From a virus: a DNA stretch of 40,531 nt. Location: the IMG/VR virus record IMGVR_UViG_3300047160_001675, positions 1 through 40,531 of that record; one strand, 5' to 3'. Shown one piece after another: positions 1,518 through 40,531 of this stretch; position 1 is the first letter of the stretch, and every line of letters begins with the position of its first letter. The notes below the pieces were generated by a model that saw only the letters and a list, made by a program, of their open reading frames with translations, was not told the origin of the DNA and searched no databases. The translations under genes were made by a program, and so were the position numbers.

Positions 1518-2051
1518 TTAGTGATTCCAAAATACATGCATGCCGTCATCAAGTTCTATAGTGAATATGTCGCTGTTTAAGTCCATATCACGCCCCATAG
1601 CATCCCAATTGATGTAATATTGAAGGTGCTTAGGAATTTCGTGCCCGCATTCATGCGTTATATATTCGGCATACTCCCCAAGGTCTTTATGAGTTCCTTG
1701 ATAATTGTTATCAAGAAATTCTTTTGCTTCTTCAATGCTTGTTCCTGATCCCAAATGTGCCACTAACTCTAAGATTAATTCGCCGTTATCCTCACTTTCA
1801 AGCATGTTCGCAATGTTACAAACTTCTTCTAGGCTACTTCTTTCTTCAACGCGATAAGAGCCGAAACCCTCATAATCGTGAATGTCCCATTCTTCCGCTA
1901 TTTCGCCGTATTCCTTTGTAACCGGCGAATCTTTTAACATTGTGTTAACCTCTTGCAAAACATCGTCATAGTCTTGCGCTGCATTGATCCAACGCCCATG
2001 TAACCAACCATTATTATATGCAGCTAAACAAGCAACGTATACGCGCGCCAT
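1518..2051 (-). CDS. ardA: ArdA-family anti-restriction protein (DNA mimic inhibiting type I R-M).
   Basis: Three segments run parallel to Tn916 Orf18/ArdA as I remember it. VYVACLAAYNNGWLHGRWI matches VYIANLGKYNEGELVGAWF. EEWDIHDYEG matches YAIHDYE. LQYYINWDAMGRDMDLNSDIFTI matches LQNYIDYQAYGRDLDLSGTFI. The protein is acidic and about 177 aa. Confidence 0.85.
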   Translation of the reverse strand: MARVYVACLAAYNNGWLHGRWINAAQDYDDVLQEVNTMLKDSPVTKEYGEIAEEWDIHDYEGFGSYRVEERSSLEEVCNIANMLESEDNGELILELVAHLGSGTSIEEAKEFLDNNYQGTHKDLGEYAEYITHECGHEIPKHLQYYINWDAMGRDMDLNSDIFTIELDDGMHVFWNH

Positions 2052-5550: not shown

Positions 5551-6199
5551 TCTTATTTATCGACCAAACTATCAAGACTATAGATTTAGTTTCATTCCAG
5601 AGTTCGAGGCATACGGCTGAAAGTTTACGCAGGGTACTGCGATATTGAATGATGCGTGGGTGATTAACCTTAGGACGCCGGGCCGTAAGTACAAGATCCG
5701 TAGAGATAGGTATGTGGGTCAGCATAAGTCTGTTCGCTTCCGTAGATATGAACAACTGCCTTGTGTGCCACTAGATAGTTATGCAGATCCCGGCTCTGAT
5801 CCTGTCAACTATGAAGAGCTTAACCTGCTCTATAGTAATGCTAAGAAGTCTTGGGATGCAAGGTCTACATATTTAGGCACTCTGAGGGAGATGCAGAGGG
5901 AGTATAACGTTAGAAAGTCTAAAGAATTATGGGAATCCCCATGCGATGGGGTTTATAAGTTTAATACAATCAAAAGAAGGAAGAAAGAAATGTTTAATGA
6001 AGACGAAGTTAGTTTCATTGAAGAAACTGCAAATAGAGATTTGAAGGCTCTTAATCACAAGATTGAGCAGATGGTTAATGAGATGGCGCGCATGGGTAAG
6101 CAGTTGAGCGACCTGAAGGTTGTGGAGTCTAAGTTGACTTCGATTCTTAGAGCGATCGAAGAAGAAAAAGAAGATGATCGCTGCCGCGGGGCCTGCTAA
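5534..6199 (+). CDS. Hypothetical protein whose ORF is interrupted by an in-frame TGA at 5618..5620 (28 codons, TGA, 192 codons).
   Basis: ATG 5534 has the SD GAGAAGGTGA. MQSERSLIYRPNYQDYRFSFIPEFEAYG ends at TGA and is in the same frame as track ORF 5645..6199. That track ORF begins at a TTG with no SD. Confidence 0.5.
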
Positions 6200-6519
6200 T
6201 GAATATTTTTAAAGGCACTCTTAGGTATTTAGAGCACCTAGGGCGCATGCGTAAGTTTTCGCATGATGAGCCAGTATTGGATCCTCGGCGCATGGTCAAC
6301 CGCACGCTTTATGGCACTGATTATCATCCTGAAGATGTAGCTTTTCAGCTTACCAAGGCTTTAAAGCATTTTCATACTGAGATGAATGGAGTTTCTATTC
6401 AAGAGTATGGCAAATGCCTAGCTGATGAGATGGTTCACGGCTTCGGCATCTTGGAGCATGCATGGGTAGATGGTCGGTTAACAGTTAAGGCAGTTCGCCC
6501 GGAGAACTATATTGGATAA
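6199..6519 (+). CDS. Hypothetical protein (106 aa).
   Basis: TAATG-coupled ORF. Confidence 0.6.
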   Translation: MNIFKGTLRYLEHLGRMRKFSHDEPVLDPRRMVNRTLYGTDYHPEDVAFQLTKALKHFHTEMNGVSIQEYGKCLADEMVHGFGILEHAWVDGRLTVKAVRPENYIG

Positions 6520-6736
6520 CGTTAATCATCCTTCGCACTATCAAGGTAAGAACGGCATAGAGAGTATTAATGTCATTGAAGGGTTCGATCTCGGATTCCA
6601 TCTTGGTAATGCCCTTAAGTACATACTAAGGGCTGGCAAGAAGGGCGATCGCGTTGAGGACATCCGCAAGGCGATATGGTATCTCAATCGAGAGATTGCA
6701 AGGCATGAGAAGTGGGAAGACCCAGTAGTGCCATAA
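6512..6736 (+). CDS. DUF3310-like small phage protein (74 aa, TTG start).
   Basis: HPSHYQG...IESINVIE...GNALKYILRAGKKG...DIRKAIWYL matches my memory of the DUF3310 signature (HY..., KY.xRag.K, KA.wYl). GGAG lies 6 nt upstream of the TTG. Confidence 0.6.
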   Translation: MDNVNHPSHYQGKNGIESINVIEGFDLGFHLGNALKYILRAGKKGDRVEDIRKAIWYLNREIARHEKWEDPVVP

Positions 6737-6808
6737 GGGTTCATGGTGCAGCGGCTAGCATACCTCCCTGTCACGGAGGAGGCGACAGTTCGATTCTGTC
6801 TGATCCCG
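6737..6808 (+). tRNA. tRNA-Asp: tRNA-Asp (anticodon GUC), CCA not encoded.
   Basis: Hand-folded cloverleaf. Acceptor GGGTTCA/TGATCCC has one T.T mismatch. D stem GTGC/GCAT. Anticodon stem CCTCC/GGAGG with loop CTGTCAC. T arm GACAG-TTCGATT-CTGTC. Confidence 0.8.
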
Positions 6809-6810
6809 AC

Positions 6811-6883
6811 GGACTCGTAGCTCAGTCGGTAGAGCAGCGGATTGTTAATCCGCAGCGCGTAGGTTCAAGTCCTGCCGAGTCCT
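6811..6883 (+). tRNA. tRNA-Asn: tRNA-Asn (anticodon GUU), CCA not encoded.
   Basis: Acceptor GGACTCG/CGAGTCC is perfect. D arm GCTC-AGTCGGTA-GAGC. Anticodon stem GCGGA/TCCGC with loop TTGTTAA. T arm GTAGG-TTCAAGT-CCTGC. Confidence 0.9.
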
Positions 6884-6885
6884 AA

Positions 6886-6959
6886 CGTGCCGTAGCTCAA
6901 TAGGTTAGAGCGGCACTCTTATAAGGTGCAGGTCGGTGGTTCAATTCCACCCGGCACGA
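6886..6959 (+). tRNA. tRNA-Ile: tRNA-Ile (anticodon UAU, AUA decoder), CCA not encoded.
   Basis: Acceptor CGTGCCG/CGGCACG is perfect. D arm GCTC-AATAGGTTA-GAGC. Anticodon stem GCACT/GGTGC with loop CTTATAA. T arm GGTGG-TTCAATT-CCACC. Confidence 0.85.
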
Positions 6960-6996
6960 AACGAGTCGGTTACAAAATGAAACCTAGTGAGGTAGT

Positions 6997-7308
6997 ATGT
7001 TCAATAGGAAGAAAGAGAAAGAGAGATTAGAGAGAGAGAAACTTATGCGTTTAGAGTTAAACGCGTTTCACGGTACTGTGAGGGCTGCCGAGAAACAGAG
7101 CCATGAAGCAGTTCAACTTCTTAAGGAGCTTAAGTATAAGATTAATGAAGATATGAGGGAAGAGCTAGATACTACTCAGAGAAAGTATATAGCTCTGTTG
7201 GAAGCAAAACTCATTCAATTCGATCAAGAAGCTGTTAAGATAAAAGCAGAGAAGGACGCTCAATATCAGCGCCTTCATAATTACTTCTATTCAGGTGCTC
7301 GTCCTTAG
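6997..7308 (+). CDS. Coiled-coil protein (103 aa).
   Basis: GAGGT SD. Charged heptad-rich sequence. Confidence 0.6.
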   Translation: MFNRKKEKERLEREKLMRLELNAFHGTVRAAEKQSHEAVQLLKELKYKINEDMREELDTTQRKYIALLEAKLIQFDQEAVKIKAEKDAQYQRLHNYFYSGARP

Positions 7309-7566
7309 CTTATAGAGGTGTTCAATAGCGTCGCATAGAATCTTGGACTTTTCAGGCTTTCCTGAGCGTTTCATCTCTTCTAAGCATAGCTCGTTGAACA
7401 TCTTCCAATGCTCTTCACTTAGGTACATTGTCACCTTAACCTTTTCCTGTTTAGGTGTGTTTACTTCTTGCGGTTTTGATGTATCTACGTTTTGCGGTAT
7501 TGCCTCGTAGTCCATTAACTTCATCTTCTTTTTGATGCTTTCTTTAGCTTGTTCTATACTCGACAT
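7291..7566 (-). CDS. Small ParA partner, probable ribbon-helix-helix centromere-binding protein (ParG/CopG-like, 91 aa).
   Basis: It sits directly downstream of parA and overlaps it by 13 nt. GGAGGAAG SD. The C-terminal KVKVTMYLSEEHWKMFNELCLEEMKRSGKPEKSKILCDAIEHL has a beta-strand plus two-helix RHH pattern. Confidence 0.45.
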   Translation of the reverse strand: MSSIEQAKESIKKKMKLMDYEAIPQNVDTSKPQEVNTPKQEKVKVTMYLSEEHWKMFNELCLEEMKRSGKPEKSKILCDAIEHLYKLRTST

Positions 7567-8318
7567 TTTACTTCCTCCACTAGTTCACGATAGGCTTCTG
7601 CGCCTTTAGAATCAGGGGCATAATCGAAGATCGACTTGCCGTTCTTTTGTGCTTCATCCAGCTTAATGTTTTGCGGTATTACGGTATTTAGTAACTTAGG
7701 GCCAAAGATTTCATGCAGCGCGGTGTTTACTTCCTTAGCTGCGTTTGCCCTTAGGTCGTGAAATGTTACCAGAACGCCTGTGATCTCTATACGGTGTTTT
7801 TGTACCCAGCCAATCTTTTCGTTAATGTAGTTGACGGTTTCAATGAAGCTATTGACGCCCTCCAAGGCGAAATAGCGTAATTGAACCGGCAGAATGATCT
7901 CTTTAGCTGCGATAAATGAGTTGATCGTCAGGTTGCCGAAGTTAGGTGGGCAGTCAATGATGATGTAGTCATGCTGCTCATTTTCGATCTTATTCTTTAG
8001 GCGAAACTCTTTTGCGCCCATAGAGGATAACTTCATATCTGCAATCGCTAGAGATAAATCAGCTGGAATGATATCAAGATTTGGAATGTAGGTAGGTTGC
8101 CTTACATCACCAACTGATACCGATTCATTACATAGAAGGTCTGAGATTGTGAGCTTGGATTCTGTGCTTATTCCAAGCCCTTTAGAGGTATTTCCTTGAG
8201 GGTCGATATCTACCAGCAATACTTTATTACCGCAATACGCTAAACCGGCAGCAAGGTTAATGGCCGTTGTAGACTTACCTACACCGCCTTTTTGATTTGA
8301 GATCGCTATAATTCGCAT
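7554..8318 (-). CDS. parA: ParA/Soj-family partition ATPase (254 aa).
   Basis: Deviant Walker A NQKGGVGKSTTAINLA. Also VLLVDIDPQGN, IIIDCPP and the VIPQNIKLDEA motif. Confidence 0.9.
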   Translation of the reverse strand: MRIIAISNQKGGVGKSTTAINLAAGLAYCGNKVLLVDIDPQGNTSKGLGISTESKLTISDLLCNESVSVGDVRQPTYIPNLDIIPADLSLAIADMKLSSMGAKEFRLKNKIENEQHDYIIIDCPPNFGNLTINSFIAAKEIILPVQLRYFALEGVNSFIETVNYINEKIGWVQKHRIEITGVLVTFHDLRANAAKEVNTALHEIFGPKLLNTVIPQNIKLDEAQKNGKSIFDYAPDSKGAEAYRELVEEVKCRV

Positions 8319-8348
8319 ACATACTCCTTGTTGTGTACACGTTATAGC

Positions 8349-8363
8349 GTTTTACGGTATTAC
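8349..8363. repeat. 15-mer GTTTTACGGTATTAC. One of three near-identical copies (also 7489..7503 and 7668..7682). Candidate parS or operator.
   Basis: The copies match at 14/15 positions. This copy is intergenic, just upstream of the parA SD. Confidence 0.4.
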
Positions 8364-8725
8364 TGTAAAGAAGTTCCTAATTGTCGCTCACAAAGCTTCC
8401 TGAGATACTCGTTAACTGTCTGATTCTCATCATATTCTTCATGGAAGTGATCGCGCATAGCAAGCGCGCGCCAATCTGTTTCTTCAGGCGCCCATTGACC
8501 TTCAAGGCCATAGCATGAGCAGTGTGACGCGTTAACTTCATAGAGGACGCCTCCATGCTCGAAAAGAACAAAGGATTGCCCACAGTAGTCTCCAGCGCCA
8601 TACCATGCGATATAGACTGTACTTTCATTCAAGGTCTTTAGGATATGCTCGTAATCCTCTTTATCTTGATAGTTAGAGTATTCTTTAGCTACATCTTCAT
8701 TAGATTTAAATTCTGCTACGTACAT
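8360..8725 (-). CDS. Hypothetical protein (121 aa; start moved to the internal ATG).
   Basis: AAGGA SD 5 nt upstream of ATG 8725 (MYVAEFKS...). Confidence 0.6.
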   Translation of the reverse strand: MYVAEFKSNEDVAKEYSNYQDKEDYEHILKTLNESTVYIAWYGAGDYCGQSFVLFEHGGVLYEVNASHCSCYGLEGQWAPEETDWRALAMRDHFHEEYDENQTVNEYLRKLCERQLGTSLQ

Positions 8726-8726
8726 A

Positions 8727-8894
8727 TTAATCCTTATCAAAGTTAAAAGAGTTAATTAGATCTTGGATAGCTTTATATTCTTCTTCATATTGAGTATTTA
8801 GAATTATATTAGAGTTTTTACCATTAAGATAATCAATATTAGCCTGATTCAATGTATTTAGATTTTCTAAAAACTCTTTTAAGGTTTTTTTCAC
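8727..8894 (-). CDS. Small hypothetical protein (55 aa, GTG start). Not in the ORF track.
   Basis: Hand translation gives (M)KKTLKEFLENLNTLNQANIDYLNGKNS...FNFDKD. AAGGA lies 7 nt upstream. The ORF fills the gap between rtcB and the next gene. Confidence 0.4.
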   Translation of the reverse strand: MKKTLKEFLENLNTLNQANIDYLNGKNSNIILNTQYEEEYKAIQDLINSFNFDKD

Positions 8895-8896
8895 TA

Positions 8897-10075
8897 TTAA
8901 TCCTTATATGGGTCTATTTCGTTTTCTGAGGCCATACAAACGCCTATCGGCTTAAGTCGGTGTATTGCCTTGACCGTCTCGCGATGTGCGAATAGAACTT
9001 GTTCTATGCGTTTATAGCAATGCGGGGATTCATCCACACCAGCCCCCCGGAGTTCGACATCGAAACGTTTAACCCAATCTTCCATGTCGTTCTGGGATAC
9101 CAACCCAGCTCTAATAATTTCGCCTGTCTTACGATTACGCTTTCCTTTAGCCTGGGCGCGACCCATAATCCGGCCGGCGCCGTGGATGGTCGAATACATA
9201 GAATCTTTGGATTCGTCGCTATCCACTCCTTCAAGGATGAATGAGTAATCACCCATAGACCCGCCAACAAAGCTTTTTTCGCCGGGAAAATTAGGCGTTG
9301 CGCCCTTTCTAACGACCCATAAGTCTTTCCCAAAATGAGACTCCCTCCATGCAAAATTATGGTGATTGTGTACTTCTTCCAGAATGTCGGCTCGTAGTAT
9401 CTGCGCAACACGCGCACACACCCAATCACGCCCTGCGTAAGCGTACCTACCAGCCATTTCCATACATTTGAGGTACTGTTCTCCGAGGTCGGAAGTTTCG
9501 TCCAAGACAACTGGTTTTGCGTGAATACCATCCTTCCCCCCCGCTTTTTCTATAAAATGTGTGGCTATGGAGTGTCCCAATCCGCGGCTCCCAAAATGTA
9601 CCCCAATCCACACGCGATCAAGATCGTCAACAAAAATATCAACATAATGGTTACCGGAACCAACAGTGCCAAGCTGCTCAATAGCTTTAGACCTAAGATT
9701 CCTAAGCAAATCAAGCTCAGTCCATAAAGGATCATCAAAAAGATTGTGCTCGACTCGTTCATTATTTTTCCTCCCTACTCCGAAGCTGATGTGCTTCTGG
9801 ACTTCGTTCATACTTCGATAGATGTTAGCCCGTACTTGATTAGAATCAGCGTTAACCCGTACAGCCTTATTGCCACATGCAATGTCAAAGCCAACGCCAT
9901 TAACACAGATACGCCCTTCATAAGCGATAACGCCACCAATAGGCACGCTATATCCAATATGGTGATCAGCCATAAGGGCTCCGCAATAAGCTTCATGCTT
10001 CAAGGCCTCCTGCATTTGTAGAATTGTTTCGGCGTCAGGGTCACCCCATACCGGAAGATTATTTAGTCTTTGCAT
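8897..10075 (-). CDS. rtcB: RtcB-family RNA ligase (3'-phosphate/2',3'-cyclic phosphate to 5'-OH ligase).
   Basis: The expected motifs are present: MADHHIGYSVPIGGV, GFDIACGN, GSGNHYVDIF, HFGSRGLGH, HNHHNFAW, GSMGDYSFIL, HGAGR and PHCYKRI. I place the start at ATG 10075 (MQRLNNLPVWG, AAGGAG upstream). The ORF also stays open back to 10126. Confidence 0.9.
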   Translation of the reverse strand: MQRLNNLPVWGDPDAETILQMQEALKHEAYCGALMADHHIGYSVPIGGVIAYEGRICVNGVGFDIACGNKAVRVNADSNQVRANIYRSMNEVQKHISFGVGRKNNERVEHNLFDDPLWTELDLLRNLRSKAIEQLGTVGSGNHYVDIFVDDLDRVWIGVHFGSRGLGHSIATHFIEKAGGKDGIHAKPVVLDETSDLGEQYLKCMEMAGRYAYAGRDWVCARVAQILRADILEEVHNHHNFAWRESHFGKDLWVVRKGATPNFPGEKSFVGGSMGDYSFILEGVDSDESKDSMYSTIHGAGRIMGRAQAKGKRNRKTGEIIRAGLVSQNDMEDWVKRFDVELRGAGVDESPHCYKRIEQVLFAHRETVKAIHRLKPIGVCMASENEIDPYKD

Positions 10076-10268
10076 CTTTCTTCCACTCCTTAGCCAATTC
10101 AGGCTTGCAGATAACGAAAGTTGCATCTAACTCTTTAGCCCATTGCATATCTACTTTCCAATGTTCGTGGCAATACTTCTTAACAAGATTTTGGAACTCC
10201 TTCAAAGGTACGGCTCCCCTGAATACAACATAACCCTCGTCATGTATCTCTAAGCACCATGTAGACAT
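10059..10268 (-). CDS. Small hypothetical protein (69 aa), first gene of the rtcB-parA operon.
   Basis: AGGAGG SD upstream of ATG 10268 (MSTWCLEIHDEG...). It overlaps the rtcB start by 17 nt. Confidence 0.55.
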   Translation of the reverse strand: MSTWCLEIHDEGYVVFRGAVPLKEFQNLVKKYCHEHWKVDMQWAKELDATFVICKPELAKEWKKDAKTK

Positions 10269-10388
10269 ATTGCCTCCTATTCTAGTGGTTAGTTCACAAG
10301 GTAGCACACACAAAATTCAGTAATCAAGAAAAATATTGCTTGTCGTAAATTAAAGCGATTTTCTATATCTTAAGTTACAGGATGTTTA

Positions 10389-10401
10389 ACTGGAATTCCT
10401 G
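10389..10401. promoter_or_regulatory. ACTGGAATTCCTG near-palindrome in the divergent control region 10269..10460.
   Basis: Member of the ACTGRAATT motif family. A second member, AAAATTCAGT, lies at 10312..10321 next to a minus-strand TTGATT. Confidence 0.35.
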
Positions 10402-10460
10402 TAAATAATCGGGTGATAAGTCTAGATGGACACACCTAATGTAACAATTTGAGGTATATA

Positions 10461-10721
10461 ATGAGTGATCAACAGGATCATCTTTTGAAGATCGTTTTAA
10501 ATAACGGTCAATTAATTGGTTTATATTGCGATGAAATGTCGTTAGCTGAGTTAGTGTCACACCCTAAGTTCTTTAAGATGAACGATAAAGTGAATGATAT
10601 CTATGTGTCCGTTGATGAGATCGCCGCCTTTGAGATTGCAAGCAATCGAAAGGAACCGCCTAAACCAATGGAGAGTAATGGTGAAAACCAAGGAACAGAT
10701 AAAAGCCCGGAACAAGCTTAG
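10461..10721 (+). CDS. Hypothetical protein (86 aa).
   Basis: GAGGT SD 5 nt upstream of ATG 10461. Confidence 0.55.
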   Translation: MSDQQDHLLKIVLNNGQLIGLYCDEMSLAELVSHPKFFKMNDKVNDIYVSVDEIAAFEIASNRKEPPKPMESNGENQGTDKSPEQA

Positions 10722-10905
10722 TTGTGAGAATTGCGGCATTAAGGACGAGTTAGAGTTCTTCGAGCACGTACTTGGGGGAATTAGATTGTGTCAAGACTGT
10801 GCCGATCTGCCCGTTAGAAAAGTGCGTAAACGAGGACTTAATTGGGTTAAGGTCAAAGGGGAGTACTTTCCCCCTGACTTCCCTGTAGCAAATAGTGTGG
10901 AATAG
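10678..10905 (+). CDS. Small zinc-ribbon protein (75 aa; CENCG...CQDC).
   Basis: GGAGAG SD upstream of ATG 10678. Two CxxC pairs. Confidence 0.5.
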   Translation: MVKTKEQIKARNKLSCENCGIKDELEFFEHVLGGIRLCQDCADLPVRKVRKRGLNWVKVKGEYFPPDFPVANSVE

Positions 10906-10906
10906 G

Positions 10907-12397
10907 ATGGATCTTCAAGAGAGCAAAGCTGTAGAACTGTTATCGAACAAACTTTGGCGTCTGTCTAATCTTTATTACATTAAGGATAAGACAGGCGACA
11001 AAGTGTTGTTCAAACCTAACTGGGCACAGTTAGAGCTTATGAAACCGCATTATCTTAATATTATATTAAAGGCCCGACAGTTAGGCGTGACGACGTTTCA
11101 CGCCTTACTTTTTCTAGACACGTGCCTATTCAATCACAATATCAATGCTGCGATCATAGCAGATAATAAGCCTAATGCAAAAGAAATTTTTATTGATAAG
11201 GTCAAGTTTGCGTATGACTGTCTACCTGATTGGCTTAAGCAGATGGCGCCCGCAAAGAGAGATAACGTAAATGAATTGCGATTCGAGAATGGATCGGTAT
11301 TCCGTGTGGGTACGTCACTTAGATCGGGAACCCTCCAGCTGCTTCACGTCACTGAGTTTGCTAAAATTTGTGTCGAGAATCCAAGAAAGGCCAACGAGAT
11401 TATTTCAGGTGCTCTCAACACTATTCAGGCTGGTCAATTTTGCTGCATTGAAAGCACTGCACGAGGTAGGGGTGGCGCTTTCTACACCATGTGCAAAAAG
11501 GCAATGGATCAGCAAGAATCAGGCGTTGAGCTCAGTAAACTCGATTGGAAGTTTTGGTTCTTTAGTTGGTGGAAACATCCTGAATATACATTGGATTCCA
11601 AGGGAGTCGTATTCACCAAAGAGCAAAACGAATATTTCGAGAAAATCGAAGCCGAGATTGGCCAGAAATTAACCATAGAGCAGAGAGCGTGGTACGTAAA
11701 GAAAGCGGAGACGCAAGGGGAGTATATGACTAGAGAGTATCCTAGTACGCCGGAAGAGTCTTTCCTTAGTGCTAATGAAGGTCTTTACTGGGGTCAACAG
11801 ATGGCAAAGGCGCGTATCGAACGCCGTATCTGTCATCTACCTTATGATGAGCATGCGCTTACGTTTAGCAGCTGGGATATCGGGATAGGGGATAGTACCG
11901 CAATTTGGGTGTGGCAGCTCGTAGGGAAAGAGATACACTTTTTAAATTATTACGAGAACAGCGATGAGTCGCTTCCTCATTACGTTAACTGGATAAAGAA
12001 GTTGCCATATGTCTTTGAAAAACATTACATGCCTCACGATGCTGCCTCCAGATCTCAAGCAACCGGAAAATCTTACGCTGATGTTGCTAGGGGACTTGGC
12101 CTTAAGGTCGACATTATACCTCTCGACCCCAACGAGATGTTTGGAATTGAAGCAGTACGGAATGCTTTCCCTCGATTCTGGTTCGATCAATCCAAGTGCG
12201 AAAAAGGCCTTAAAGCCGTCGATGCATTCAAGAAAGAATGGAACGAGAAACATGGATGTTATCGAGAAAAGAGCTTGCATGATTGGGCATCGCATGGTGC
12301 TAAAGCACTTATATATGGAGTACAGGCAATCGACAAGATGCAGATAGGCAGGGGCTTATCAGCTGAAGAGTGGCGTCAACTAAGGAGGAGCGTGTAA
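10907..12397 (+). CDS. terL: Terminase large subunit.
   Basis: ILKARQLGVTTF is a Walker-A-like motif typical of Terminase_6-type TerL. The C-terminal WDIGIGDSTAIWVWQ...HYMPHD is a nuclease-like region. About 500 aa and followed by the portal gene. A GTG at 10895 is an alternative start. Confidence 0.85.
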   Translation: MDLQESKAVELLSNKLWRLSNLYYIKDKTGDKVLFKPNWAQLELMKPHYLNIILKARQLGVTTFHALLFLDTCLFNHNINAAIIADNKPNAKEIFIDKVKFAYDCLPDWLKQMAPAKRDNVNELRFENGSVFRVGTSLRSGTLQLLHVTEFAKICVENPRKANEIISGALNTIQAGQFCCIESTARGRGGAFYTMCKKAMDQQESGVELSKLDWKFWFFSWWKHPEYTLDSKGVVFTKEQNEYFEKIEAEIGQKLTIEQRAWYVKKAETQGEYMTREYPSTPEESFLSANEGLYWGQQMAKARIERRICHLPYDEHALTFSSWDIGIGDSTAIWVWQLVGKEIHFLNYYENSDESLPHYVNWIKKLPYVFEKHYMPHDAASRSQATGKSYADVARGLGLKVDIIPLDPNEMFGIEAVRNAFPRFWFDQSKCEKGLKAVDAFKKEWNEKHGCYREKSLHDWASHGAKALIYGVQAIDKMQIGRGLSAEEWRQLRRSV

Positions 12398-35992: not shown

Positions 35993-37446
35993 TGCAACAC
36001 ACACACTTTACTAGGGATTCACTGGACGCAGAAGGAAGAGAGTTTTTATGTGATCGAGGCATCAGCATTCCGGTCGCACAACAAATGGGCGTAGCTAGCG
36101 CAAATGGAGCCATAAGTTTTCCTTATGTTTTCAATGGCGAGATAGTCCGCGTTAAGTATCGCAATATGCAGGACAAAAAGAAAATGTGGTTCAGCAAGAA
36201 GGACGACGAAAGGGAGAATTTCAAGATGCCCTTCTGGAACCAACGCATTTGGCCTACAAGCGATTATCTTATCATCACGGAGGGTGAGTTCGATGCGATC
36301 GCGATAGCTCAATTGGGAGCCTCCTGTGTGGTTTCTTTGCCAAACGGTGCAGCTAGTGTCGTATCGACATTCAAGAATCATTACGATTACCTGCAAAGTT
36401 TTAGTGAAATCTATATTGCCTTCGATATGGATGAGGCTGGAGAAAAGGCAGTCAATGAGGCTAAGAAGTTAATACCTCCAAAGAAGTTTCGTAGGATCAT
36501 GTTTCCTGCGAAAGATGCGAATGACTGGGTGGCACAAAATCCGGGCATCGACAAACATGAGCTTGATCATTTGATGCGTAATGCATCTAAGATCTGCGTT
36601 GACGAGATCGTTCACTTTAGAGACCTACCCGAAACGTTTTACCAATCAAGAGATAGAGGTGTTCCGACTGGATGGAAAGATCTTGATGATTTGATAGGCG
36701 GTATTCGACCGAAAGAGATGACGGTTATCTCAGCCGATACGGGTGCAGGTAAAACAACATTTTCAGTAAACCTTCTATGCAATTTGATACGCAAAGATCC
36801 TTCAGGTTTTTGGATCAATAGTTGGGAGATGGACTATGAAGTTATCATCCGAAAAGTCGCTAGTGTAGTACTAGGGTCTAAGTTCAAAACGCAAGCCTTT
36901 ACCAGTGAGCAGATCAAGGCGTTCAAGGCGTGGATGCACAAGCACAACGCTATGATCAATCCGAAGCGATCGAAAGCCGATATTCCATCGCTACAGAAGC
37001 AGATCGAGCTTGCCTCTAAGGTCTATGGCGTGAAGTACGTACTCTTAGATCACCTAGACTACATTAGCGCGACGTCGAAAGAGAAAGAGGGTCACGAGAA
37101 GATCAAGGACGCCGTCGTAGGCATTCACGATATGGCTATGGAGTATGATGTTCACATCCTGCTTATAGCCCATCCTAAGCAGTTAGAAGATGGATCTGGT
37201 AAGATGCATATGGGGCAGCTCAAAGGGAGTGCCGCGATCAAGCAGTACGCTGACAACATATTGCTCTTGCAAAACATGGCGCAAGCCGATCTAGCATCGC
37301 CTGATAATCGCATGAAGGTTTTAATCCCTAAGAACCGTTTCTTCGGAACTAAAGGAGAAGTAACCCTCAGGTATATACCAGAGAGCGATAGCTATATAGA
37401 TAATTCGCAAATATTTTCACCAAGGAGAAGTTATGAAGAAGGTTAA
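35992..37446 (+). CDS. Bifunctional primase-helicase (TOPRIM plus DnaB/RecA-like ATPase; T7 gp4-like, no obvious zinc finger).
   Basis: TOPRIM is seen as IITEGEFDAIA...LPNGA...AFDMDEAGEKA. Walker A is SADTGAGKTTF. Walker B is VLLDHLDY, followed by ILLIAHPKQ. Confidence 0.85.
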   Translation: MQHTHFTRDSLDAEGREFLCDRGISIPVAQQMGVASANGAISFPYVFNGEIVRVKYRNMQDKKKMWFSKKDDERENFKMPFWNQRIWPTSDYLIITEGEFDAIAIAQLGASCVVSLPNGAASVVSTFKNHYDYLQSFSEIYIAFDMDEAGEKAVNEAKKLIPPKKFRRIMFPAKDANDWVAQNPGIDKHELDHLMRNASKICVDEIVHFRDLPETFYQSRDRGVPTGWKDLDDLIGGIRPKEMTVISADTGAGKTTFSVNLLCNLIRKDPSGFWINSWEMDYEVIIRKVASVVLGSKFKTQAFTSEQIKAFKAWMHKHNAMINPKRSKADIPSLQKQIELASKVYGVKYVLLDHLDYISATSKEKEGHEKIKDAVVGIHDMAMEYDVHILLIAHPKQLEDGSGKMHMGQLKGSAAIKQYADNILLLQNMAQADLASPDNRMKVLIPKNRFFGTKGEVTLRYIPESDSYIDNSQIFSPRRSYEEG

Positions 37447-38592: not shown

Positions 38593-39287
38593 AATAAACT
38601 CTCTATGGAAAAGACACGGATGGTACTTCGACGAAAAGGAGAAGAAGGAGTGTCTTTGACGCTTCACGCCAAAAGCTTCGACAGTCTTTCATCGAGGGGG
38701 ACTATGCTTGCCCAGAGTTCGGTTCCATAAATAGATGGATGATCGACGAAAAAGTTGACGGCACTAATGTGCGGATTTTTTGGGAGCCAGCAGACCAGTT
38801 TTCCCCGAACTACGGAGGCAGGACAGATAACGCACAAATGCCAACCTCTCTCCTTCAACACTTGCAACATACTTTTACCCGCGAAAAGCTTCAAAAGCAG
38901 TTTCCTGATGCACGGAAGGTCATTCTTTTCGGCGAAGGGTACGGCCCAAAGATCCAAGCCTGTGGAGGTAGGTATCGTAAAGACGTGTCCTTCATCCTCT
39001 TCGACGTCTGGATCGACGGATGGTGGCTCGAAAAGGAAAGTGTATTGGAGATCGCCTCGGCACTTGATATTGAACACACCATTAATCAAAAGATTATGAC
39101 AACCGCTGAGGTTGTTGAATTCGTAAAATCTAAGCCCAAGAGTTACATCGCGGAAGATAGGGAGCTGATCATGGAGGGGGTAATAGCGCGAAGCGTCCCG
39201 CTTATGCTCTTCAGAAATCACAAAACTCCTATCATGTTCAAACTTAAAGTTAGAGACTTCCCAGATATTAGCGAGGTCGAAGCTTAA
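38579..39287 (+). CDS. ATP-dependent RNA ligase (Rnl2/PF09414-like), assembled as join(38579..38656, 38658..39287). It needs a +1 frameshift at CUU-UGA and would give 235 aa.
   Basis: Motif I is EKVDGTN, with the lysine codon at 38751. Motif III-like is ILFGEGYG, motif IV-like is FILFDVW, and motif V-like is EGVIARS...FKLK. The N-terminal MEYPKINSLWKR resembles T4 Rnl2 MFKKYSSLENHY and lies in the -1 frame relative to the body. The body frame has no start codon or SD upstream of motif I. Confidence 0.65.
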
Positions 39288-40323: not shown

Positions 40324-40531
40324 TATATACTCGAGAGGTGGCGCCATGCGTCCATATACCGCCATCTCTATTTCGATAGCCCATATCGTTTAACTGATCC
40401 GCAATAGTCCTAAAGGTCATTCCTTTATGCTTCCGCATCGAGTACATGATCTTAAGTATTTCCGCTTCTTCTTTATTAGCTTCAAGTAGCCCGTTATCGT
40501 CTAGTTGCTGCCCGTATGGCACACGGCCCAC
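40271..40531 (-). CDS. Serine recombinase, 3' part (recombinase/HTH-like DNA-binding region).
   Basis: GRVPYGQQLDDNGLLEANKEEAEILKIMYSMRKHKGMTFRTIADQLNDMGYRNRDGGIWT resembles the PYGY...IA..LN..G...W 'recombinase' domain of serine integrases. The protein stops at 240 aa with no zinc-ribbon or coiled-coil extension. Confidence 0.85.
   Translation of the reverse strand: MGRVPYGQQLDDNGLLEANKEEAEILKIMYSMRKHKGMTFRTIADQLNDMGYRNRDGGIWTHGATSRVYINYEKLFSGVLALQGRL
40435..40531. repeat. Terminal direct overlap, copy 2.
   Basis: Identical to 1..97. Confidence 0.95.

Follow-up and report, generated by a model that had tools for sequence, protein, structure and literature searches.

A three-tRNA cluster in an uncultured soil phage, weighed against codon demand and RNA repair

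The tRNA genes and their cassette

Positions 1 to 40,531 of the IMG/VR virus record IMGVR_UViG_3300047160_001675 (this whole 40,531-base stretch is called the window below) carry, at 6737-6959, a tight cluster of three tRNA genes that a preliminary description, made from the sequence alone, had read together with a nearby RtcB RNA ligase as a replace-and-repair kit against tRNA-targeting immunity. ARAGORN, run over the whole window, called three tRNAs in total, all on the plus strand: tRNA-Asp(GUC) at 6737-6808 (72 nt), tRNA-Asn(GUU) at 6811-6883 (73 nt) and tRNA-Ile(UAU), a reader of AUA, at 6886-6959 (74 nt). Rfam family RF00005 matched each of them end to end (model positions 1-71 of 71) at the same coordinates, with 59.3, 71.2 and 71.6 bits, respectively, and E-values, scaled to this window, from 1.7e-10 (tRNA-Asp) to 7e-14; these scores lie so far above the gathering score of 29 bits, and the E-values are so low, that the three matches are not due to chance. 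As the preliminary description had it, the genes are separated by 2 nt each (AC at 6809-6810 and AA at 6884-6885), the first begins at 6737, directly after the TAA stop (6734-6736) of a gene for a 74-amino-acid DUF3310-domain protein (6512-6736, plus strand; Pfam PF11753, 8.8e-19), and none encodes CCA, since the discriminators G73 (Asp), U73 (Asn) and A73 (Ile) are followed by ACG, AAC and AAC. The anticodons GUC and GUU likewise place tRNA-Asp and tRNA-Asn among the GUN (queuosine-family) tRNAs, as described. The 'clean cloverleaves' of that description held for tRNA-Asn and tRNA-Ile, but not for tRNA-Asp, in which the acceptor stem has a single mismatch, U4-U69, that fits its lower Rfam score.

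The anticodon loops CTGTCAC (Asp), TTGTTAA (Asn) and CTTATAA (Ile) are all 7 nt long, with U33 and a purine at position 37, and the T-loops are of the TTCRANY type (TTCGATT, TTCAAGT and TTCAATT, respectively). Relatives of the phage (about 160 related loci, given L numbers, from RtcB-based and portal-based IMG/VR scans) carry compensatory changes in the stems. The tRNA-Asp anticodon stem CCTCC/GGAGG becomes CCTGC/GCAGG in L003; the tRNA-Asn acceptor stem GGACTCG/CGAGTCC becomes GGACTAT/ATAGTCC in L241 and GGACTTT/AAAGTCC in L030; and the tRNA-Ile acceptor stem CGTGCCG/CGGCACG becomes CGTGTTG/CAACACG in L241. Such changes indicate that the tRNAs are under structural (purifying) selection.

Two of the tRNAs have distinctive ends. 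In tRNA-Asn, G1-C72 and U73 replace the usual bacterial U1-A72 and G73, of which G73 is an identity element for asparaginyl-tRNA synthetase (AsnRS) in E. coli; in an alignment of 30 Asn tRNAs, U73 is conserved across covarying acceptor stems in the tRNA-Asn genes of ~40-kb phages. The same CCA-less, G1-C72/U73 form of tRNA-Asn(GUU) also occurs in L003, L085, L241, L022, L030, L069, L225 and L089, and the tRNA-Asn genes of bacterial or jumbo-type arrays have U1-A72 and G73 and encode CCA. The raw sequence of tRNA-Ile(UAU) has A73, A37, A38, U12-A23 and C1-G72, its variable and T arms read AGGTCGGTGGTTCAATTCCACC, and the C1-G72 first pair is maintained in relatives via compensatory changes; its copies in L004, L010 and L085 are 91-95% identical, with flanks that are much more diverged. 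The UAU anticodon itself is plain in the sequence, and the TilS-independent reading of AUA that the preliminary description attached to it follows from established knowledge, as a UAU anticodon would read AUA without lysidine, the product of TilS. Thirteen distinct UAU Ile tRNA sequences were found among the viral contigs scanned, so a tRNA of this kind is not unusual for phages.

Together with a gene for a 103-amino-acid predicted coiled-coil protein (orf103; 6997-7308, plus strand), the three tRNAs make up a cassette of ~570 bp at 6737-7309. orf103 has no family match in Pfam or PHROG, shows no homing-endonuclease or transposase signature in those scans and, when scanned against IMG/VR, found a known close relative only. 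It accompanies the tRNAs in L003 (85% amino acid identity), L004 (61%) and L085 (54%), and both are missing from L001 (a contig of 40,079 bp that shares 31 genes) and L002, the nearest relatives of the window by tblastn synteny (RtcB 86% and ParA 97% identical). In these two phages homology reaches the DUF3310 stop and restarts at window position 7310; 6737-7309 is absent, and a terminator-like hairpin of ~35 nt stands in its place.

The content of the site varies further among relatives. L003 has Pro(UGG)-Asp-Asn-Ile(UAU) with 2-nt spacers throughout, followed by orf103; L004 has Ile(UAU) alone with orf103; L085 has Pro, Asp-Asn, a 195-nt insert and Ile; and L006 carries Met, Trp and Ser tRNAs. 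The DUF3310 stop abuts a tRNA 5' end in several lineages, although the first tRNA differs (Asp in the window, Pro in L003 and L085, Ile in L004 and Asn in the distant L022), and the junction looks like a recurrent, reused slot for tRNA insertion; with the stop abutting the tRNA in this way, RNase P cleavage would set the 3' end of the DUF3310 message. Between phages, the tRNA genes are 91-96% identical, compared with about 74-80% for the flanking genes.

Some tRNA predictions elsewhere in the set, made by ARAGORN alone, were odd: an ochre-suppressor-like UUA anticodon and 4-nt anticodons in L010 (7519-7970); A34 anticodons, namely Ile-AAU twice (L030/L031), Asn-AUU (L047/L048), Phe-AAA (L209) and Tyr-AUA (L226); and a predicted transfer-messenger RNA on the viral contig L082 (6122-6572).

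RNA ligases and their linkage with the tRNAs

The RtcB gene lies on the minus strand at 8897-10126 (Pfam PF01139, 4.6e-67; PHROG 1075), 1.9 kb from the tRNAs, in keeping with the distance of about 2 kb in the preliminary description. Its open reading frame (ORF) has 409 codons for amino acids, and public gene calls begin at the second ATG, 10075, giving 392 amino acids. RtcB joins 3'-phosphate or 2',3'-cyclic-phosphate ends to 5'-OH ends, and because the catalytic motifs are all retained (MxDxHxGY, DIxCG, GSGNH, VHxGSRGLGH, HN and HGAGR all align to P. horikoshii RtcB), repair of cyclic-phosphate/5'-OH breaks by the phage enzyme is plausible. A second, Rnl-like ATP-dependent ligase of 182 amino acids, consisting of the nucleotidyltransferase domain only, is encoded on the plus strand at 38739-39287 (PF09414, 4.3e-14; PHROG 548 'RNA ligase', 8e-11). 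Its motif I reads EKVDGTN in translation, it found no PDB match by sequence, and it would act on 3'-OH/5'-P ends, a chemistry complementary to that of RtcB; a minus-strand ORF that overlaps it at 38664-39221 is probably spurious.

The arrangement and the distribution of the genes both separate RtcB from the tRNAs. A leftward operon (RtcB, orf55, orf126, ParA and orf91) converges on a rightward unit that ends in the tRNAs and orf103, with the tRNAs on the plus strand at the 3' tail of this early operon and RtcB on the minus strand. L001 and L002 retain RtcB without the cassette; indeed, RtcB is kept in all close relatives, with tRNAs present or not. Conversely, tRNAs occur in relatives that have no RtcB (Asn and Asp in L225 and L226, and Asn in L229), and many RtcB-bearing phages either lack tRNAs or carry others, for Thr(UGU), Val, Gln, Pro or Ala. 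Among portal-family loci with at least 7 kb upstream of the portal, which are not phylogenetically independent of one another, a tRNA of any kind was present at 8 of the 14 loci with RtcB and at 9 of the 22 without (Fisher P = 0.50). A tie between tRNAs and RtcB is thus not supported by comparison with sister phages, and the two appear to be inherited independently.

Homologues of this RtcB (55-62% identity) were also observed inside or against arrays of 11-35 CCA-encoding tRNAs, both on viral contigs (L050, L059 and L062) and on contigs of Acidobacteriota metagenome-assembled genomes (MAGs; L095, L097, L118, L126, L136, L147, L150, L152, L155, L157 and L163). RtcB sits at about 10001-11200 in most of these array loci, GC content was 55-61% in the MAG loci checked, and some of the contigs exceed 1 Mb (L152). 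We found no description in the literature of a link between RtcB and long tRNA arrays in Acidobacteriota; such a link has been published for cyanobacteria.

The nearest cellular RtcB (72% amino acid identity; L087, 10001-11179) is on a Parachlamydiaceae MAG chromosome (OY969795.1), beside DnaN, RecF, FolD, a Protochlamydia outer-membrane protein and fumarase, with a phage-like local GC content of 42%. Its reading as a prophage that would reveal the host was rejected, as these neighbours are housekeeping chlamydial genes; the locus suggests either gene exchange between the phage pool and environmental chlamydiae or a hint of the host. A phage-like region (L089, 1-13160; 43.5% GC), located at one end of an Acidobacteriaceae MAG contig of 242 kb, encodes RtcB, TerL and portal proteins with 66%, 43% and 32% identity, respectively, to those of the window, along with tRNAs for Ile(UAU), Ile(AAU), Asn (GUU, of the G1-C72/U73 type) and Tyr. 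This region could be a prophage that links a sister phage group to a host, or an artefact of binning or assembly.

Codon demand and competing explanations

Codons GAY, AAY and AUA, which the three tRNAs would read, amount to about 13% of phage codons (per 1000, Asp 60.0, Asn 56.6 and ATA 16.8, from about 11,100 codons), with ATA making up 26% of the Ile codons. Late structural genes are richer in Asn than the rest of the genome (62.5 versus 47.9 per 1000; for AAC, 36.4 in late genes versus 19.3 elsewhere), and AUA is rarer in late genes than in others (14.6 versus 19.9 per 1000). Six lineages that hold the nearest RtcB homologues stood in as candidate hosts, each sampled on a small scale and with crude calling of ORFs: Parachlamydiales, Acidobacteriaceae, Bryobacterales, Ignavibacteria/Kapaibacteria, Caldilineaceae and Armatimonadota. 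Per 1000 codons, the phage exceeded all of their ranges for ATA (15.8 versus 2.1-10.9), Asn (57 versus 30-45) and Asp (59 versus 47-56). When the 61 codons were ranked by their excess in the phage over the candidate host, one Asn codon ranked 2-4 in all six lineages, one Asp codon ranked 4-8 in five of the six and ATA ranked 4-13 across them. Also high in excess were ACA, CAA, TTA, GTA and GCA, which correspond to the Thr-UGU, Gln-UUG, Leu-UAA, Val-UAC and Ala-UGC tRNAs of relatives. This comparison of scenarios is consistent with codon compensation without proving it.

The best explanation, in our view, is that the three genes are functional elongator tRNAs in an optional, horizontally shuffled cassette that raises GAY, AAY and AUA decoding during infection, and that RtcB is a conserved backbone gene of the phage group, independent of the cassette; as a single joint claim, we hold this with evenly balanced confidence. 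The analysis shows the genes themselves, their structural conservation, their presence and absence, the lack of linkage with RtcB and the codon counts; expression, processing, charging and a fitness benefit are inferred, as follows. The tRNAs would be transcribed as the tail of a polycistronic early-operon message (a promoter and terminator scan found no dedicated tRNA promoter, with matches not above shuffle expectation). Host RNase P would release them on the 5' side, with 3' trimming by RNase Z or exonucleases of the host; as no CCA is encoded, the host CCA-adding enzyme would be needed to complete them; and the host aspartyl-, asparaginyl- and isoleucyl-tRNA synthetases (AspRS, AsnRS and IleRS) would charge them. 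Decoding capacity would then go up for GAY, AAY and AUA, where phage demand (above all for Asn and AUA) would exceed that of any plausible host, with the UAU tRNA making the reading of AUA independent of TilS.

Several observations weigh against this explanation, beginning with the provisional nature of the stand-in lineages. In most scenarios the codons in greatest excess are those for Lys, for which the phage carries no tRNA. A tRNA-less sister, L248 (the same contig as L001), matches the window in codon usage (per 1000, ATA 15.4, Asn 56.1 and Asp 59.7, compared with 16.1, 55.9 and 60.3), such that codon usage alone does not force tRNA carriage; nor, within the phage family, is carriage predictable from the usage of ATA, Asn or Asp. 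The comparison between phage and host codons, proposed as a check in the preliminary description, gave a divided answer, with the excess of Asn and AUA in all six lineages, and the ranks of Asp in five, set against a tRNA-less sister of the same usage. GUN tRNAs, in addition, were found at 5 of the 14 loci with RtcB and at 1 of the 22 without (P = 0.024, uncorrected), an enrichment that falls to P = 0.12 once the two RtcB-less loci L225 and L226 are added and that does not account for phylogeny. Lastly, a phage tRNA-Asn(GUU), that of T5, has been shown by experiment to neutralise the PARIS defence system, together with the Lys and Thr(UGU) tRNAs of that phage.

These last two points favour a counter-defence role, which we regard as possible but doubtful, in which tRNAs from the phage make good the loss of Asp, Asn and Ile decoders to a tRNA-targeting immune nuclease of the host (colicin-E5-like, PARIS/AriB-like, PrrC/RloC-like or retron-Septu-like), with or without repair; any repair would fall to RtcB for cyclic-phosphate/5'-OH breaks and to the Rnl-like ligase for 3'-OH/5'-P breaks. 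The tRNAs and the intact RtcB motifs of the replace-and-repair kit in the preliminary description are indeed there, with the second ligase of complementary end chemistry in the same genome, and an ArdA anti-restriction protein of the DNA-mimic type (1518-2051, minus strand; PF07275, 3.9e-39) indicates that the phage invests in counter-defence. ArdA is also present in the tRNA-less sister L001, and so does not co-vary with the cassette. Asn-GUU, Thr-UGU, Pro-UGG and His-GUG tRNAs, which overlap the major and minor targets of AriB, recur in the phage pool; the location of RtcB homologues within large tRNA arrays of other viral contigs and Acidobacteriota MAGs, and the atypical acceptor end of tRNA-Asn, point the same way. 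The general idea is also in print, as the hypothesis of van den Berg et al. 2023 that sets phage tRNAs against anticodon nucleases, colicin E5 included; the tRNA-Tyr of T5 counters Retron-Eco7.

The preliminary description was borne out in its facts, but neither the arrangement of the genes nor the sequences of the tRNAs support its reading as a linked kit in place of codon supply. The tRNAs belong to one transcription unit and RtcB to another, convergent with it; RtcB-bearing sisters do without the cassette, and RtcB-less relatives have Asn and Asp tRNAs. Colicin E5 recognises the dinucleotide G34-U35. That site, which is discussed in van den Berg et al. 2023, is unsubstituted in tRNA-Asp (CUGUCAC) and tRNA-Asn (UUGUUAA), and tRNA-Asn retains U36AAUC|C41, the sequence within which AriB cuts E. 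coli tRNA-Asn. With canonical loops at both the E5 and the AriB sites, the phage copies should be as cleavable as those of the host, with no visible escape. AriB, moreover, leaves 3'-OH/5'-P ends, which RtcB cannot join and for which the Rnl-like enzyme would be needed. We know of no anticodon nuclease that targets tRNA-Ile(UAU). Nor is tRNA-Ile(UAU) among the targets in the T5/PARIS work or in van den Berg et al. 2023, and the GUN enrichment weakens as described above. A more elaborate form of the idea, which we think unlikely, is that a distinctive lineage of CCA-less tRNAs, common to a pool of ~40-kb low-GC soil phages (Asn with G1-C72/U73 and Ile with C1-G72), is selected to supply nuclease-insensitive or surplus substitutes for host tRNAs hit by tRNases of the PARIS, E5 or acceptor-stem type, with RtcB and the Rnl-like ligase covering both break chemistries. 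The phage ArdA is one conceivable trigger of such tRNases. If true, this would be a compact replace-and-repair arsenal in a small phage, not a jumbo phage.

A general decay of host translation, through turnover of host tRNAs or shut-off of their transcription, would also leave a phage dependent on the tRNAs most limiting for its late proteins, and would supply a reason for tRNA carriage that involves neither host-phage codon bias nor a specific immune nuclease. Such a model is already among the explanations offered for phage tRNAs (Yang et al. 2021, as listed in van den Berg et al. 2023), and it suits both the strong Asn enrichment of late structural genes and the place of the tRNAs at the end of the early operon, which would have them ready ahead of late-gene expression. 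The lower frequency of AUA in late genes and the existence of tRNA-less sisters speak against it. By sequence alone it is inseparable from the best explanation, and we consider it improbable. Less probable still is a largely neutral or selfish passenger that recombination between co-infecting phages would spread to an intergenic site tolerant of insertions, with no meaningful benefit to the phage. The presence and absence of the cassette, the modular shuffling at a single hot spot, the greater similarity of the tRNA genes than of their flanks and the ORFan orf103 travelling with them would all be expected of such an element; however, orf103 lacks the homing-endonuclease or transposase signature sought in the Pfam and PHROG scans, compensatory changes that keep the tRNA structures intact indicate purifying selection, and an identical cassette-bearing genotype was found in at least 10 metagenome contigs from several samples.

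An accessory cassette for codon supply would make this an ordinary kind of phage tRNA cluster, and the ideas of tRNAs paired with RtcB or Rnl ligases and of tRNA-Asn in counter-defence are already published. If that ordinary reading holds, the window adds another phage with a few tRNAs for high-demand codons, and is of use chiefly as a clean annotation of a lineage of uncultured soil phages. The relatives also constitute a natural experiment, comprising near-identical genomes with the cassette (the window and L167-L176), with a variant of it (L003, L004 and L085) and with none (L001 and L002), and with RtcB in all; given a host, these variants would allow codon supply and counter-defence to be tested directly against each other, a question general to phage tRNAs.

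Genome context and comparison with known systems

The source is an uncultured, low-GC soil phage with a complete genome of ~40.4 kb. The window ends, 1-97 and 40435-40531, are identical over 97 bp, so that the phage genome is complete, either circular or terminally redundant, at about 40,434 bp. A Pfam scan of the window ORFs recovered TerL and a P22-type portal, and the genome also encodes a capsid protein, a K1-lyase-type tailspike domain, a primase-helicase, a replication initiator, a RecT-like protein and a PD-(D/E)XK nuclease. ParA, from the same scan (7554-8318, minus strand), shows 96-98% amino acid identity across the window and L001-L004, compared with 55-90% for adjoining genes, a pattern that may reflect either unusually strong constraint or recent exchange. 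No integrase was found among the window ORFs scanned against Pfam and PHROGs. The tRNAs were considered as an attP or integration remnant, and this was rejected, given three complete tRNAs, no integrase among the scanned ORFs and the presence of ParA. At least 7 metagenome contigs (one of 40,395 bp) are 100% identical to the window over 6200-7600, and the cassette-bearing genotype recurs in several JGI, ENA and SRA samples. Those that contain it include JGI 3300032067, 3300032009 and 3300016371, ENA ERZ27257208/209/286, and SRR9041211, SRR9041313 and SRR9043709.

Searches for a cultured relative or a host were negative within their scopes. Cultured phages gave no near-DNA match for window positions 5600-10200; tblastn of the portal against phage and plasmid collections reached at most 27% identity, with no cultured relative or phage-plasmid pointing to a host; and a distant blastn search with the tRNA cluster found generic tRNA similarity only among phages, with no clue to the host. 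Tetranucleotide correlation with 80 bacterial loci was not discriminating (0.5-0.6 for Parachlamydiales, Granulicella and others; 0.90 for a sister phage).

Among known systems, the closest in layout are the small tRNA sets of temperate P22-like and lambdoid phages of ~40 kb, such as Sf6 and phage 21, which carry tRNA-Asn and tRNA-Thr: a few closely spaced tRNAs that include Asn, a genome of ~40 kb and a P22-type portal. In Sf6 (39 kb, P22-like), tRNA-Asn (36065-36139) and tRNA-Thr (36145-36220) are 5 nt apart, encode CCA and follow a late promoter, whereas the window tRNAs lack CCA, follow the DUF3310 gene of an early operon and include Asp and a UAU rather than CAU Ile. P1 carries Asn, Thr and Ile tRNAs, and Asn, Thr(UGU) and an AUA-reading Ile are likewise the types that recur in the soil-phage pool. 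TilS-independent tRNA-Ile(UAU) is exemplified by Mycoplasma mobile, tilS suppressors of Bacillus subtilis and the tRNA-Ile of T4; the window tRNA-Ile(UAU) shares A73, A37 and A38 with bacterial tRNA-Ile and differs in its C1-G72 first pair, and its charging with Ile and its reading of AUA but not AUG would depend on the host IleRS and on the modification of U34.

Like T4, the phage combines tRNA genes and an RNA-repair ligase in one genome. Pnkp and Rnl1 of T4 repair host tRNA-Lys cleaved by PrrC, as summarised in van den Berg et al. 2023. T4 thus repairs a host Lys tRNA with a kinase-phosphatase and an ATP-dependent ligase, whereas the window has RtcB, no Pnkp and no known target nuclease, and its tRNAs and ligase are, by the comparative data, inherited independently. 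With T5 it shares a phage tRNA-Asn(GUU), which there was shown to aid evasion of PARIS; T5 tRNA variants are substituted at the 40/41 cleavage site, while the window tRNA-Asn keeps UAAUC|C, and the Lys and Thr tRNAs of T5 have no counterpart in the window. PARIS is triggered by the DNA mimic Ocr, the only such protein tested, and the window ArdA is a DNA mimic of the same class.

Jumbo phages supplement their tRNAs with RtcB and/or Rnl ligases of different end specificities (Iyer et al. 2021), and cyanobacterial tRNA arrays are co-regulated with rtcB (Santamaria-Gomez et al. 2021); the role proposed for arrays and ligases is upkeep of the tRNA pool against toxin RNases. As in these jumbo-phage and bacterial arrays, tRNAs, RtcB and an ATP-dependent ligase are found in one element in the window, and RtcB proteins of its clade lie inside arrays of 15-35 tRNAs in L050, L059 and Acidobacteriota MAGs. 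The array systems, however, enclose RtcB within near-complete sets of CCA-encoding tRNAs. The window tRNAs are only three and CCA-less, they lie 1.9 kb away from RtcB on the other strand, and sister phages do without them.

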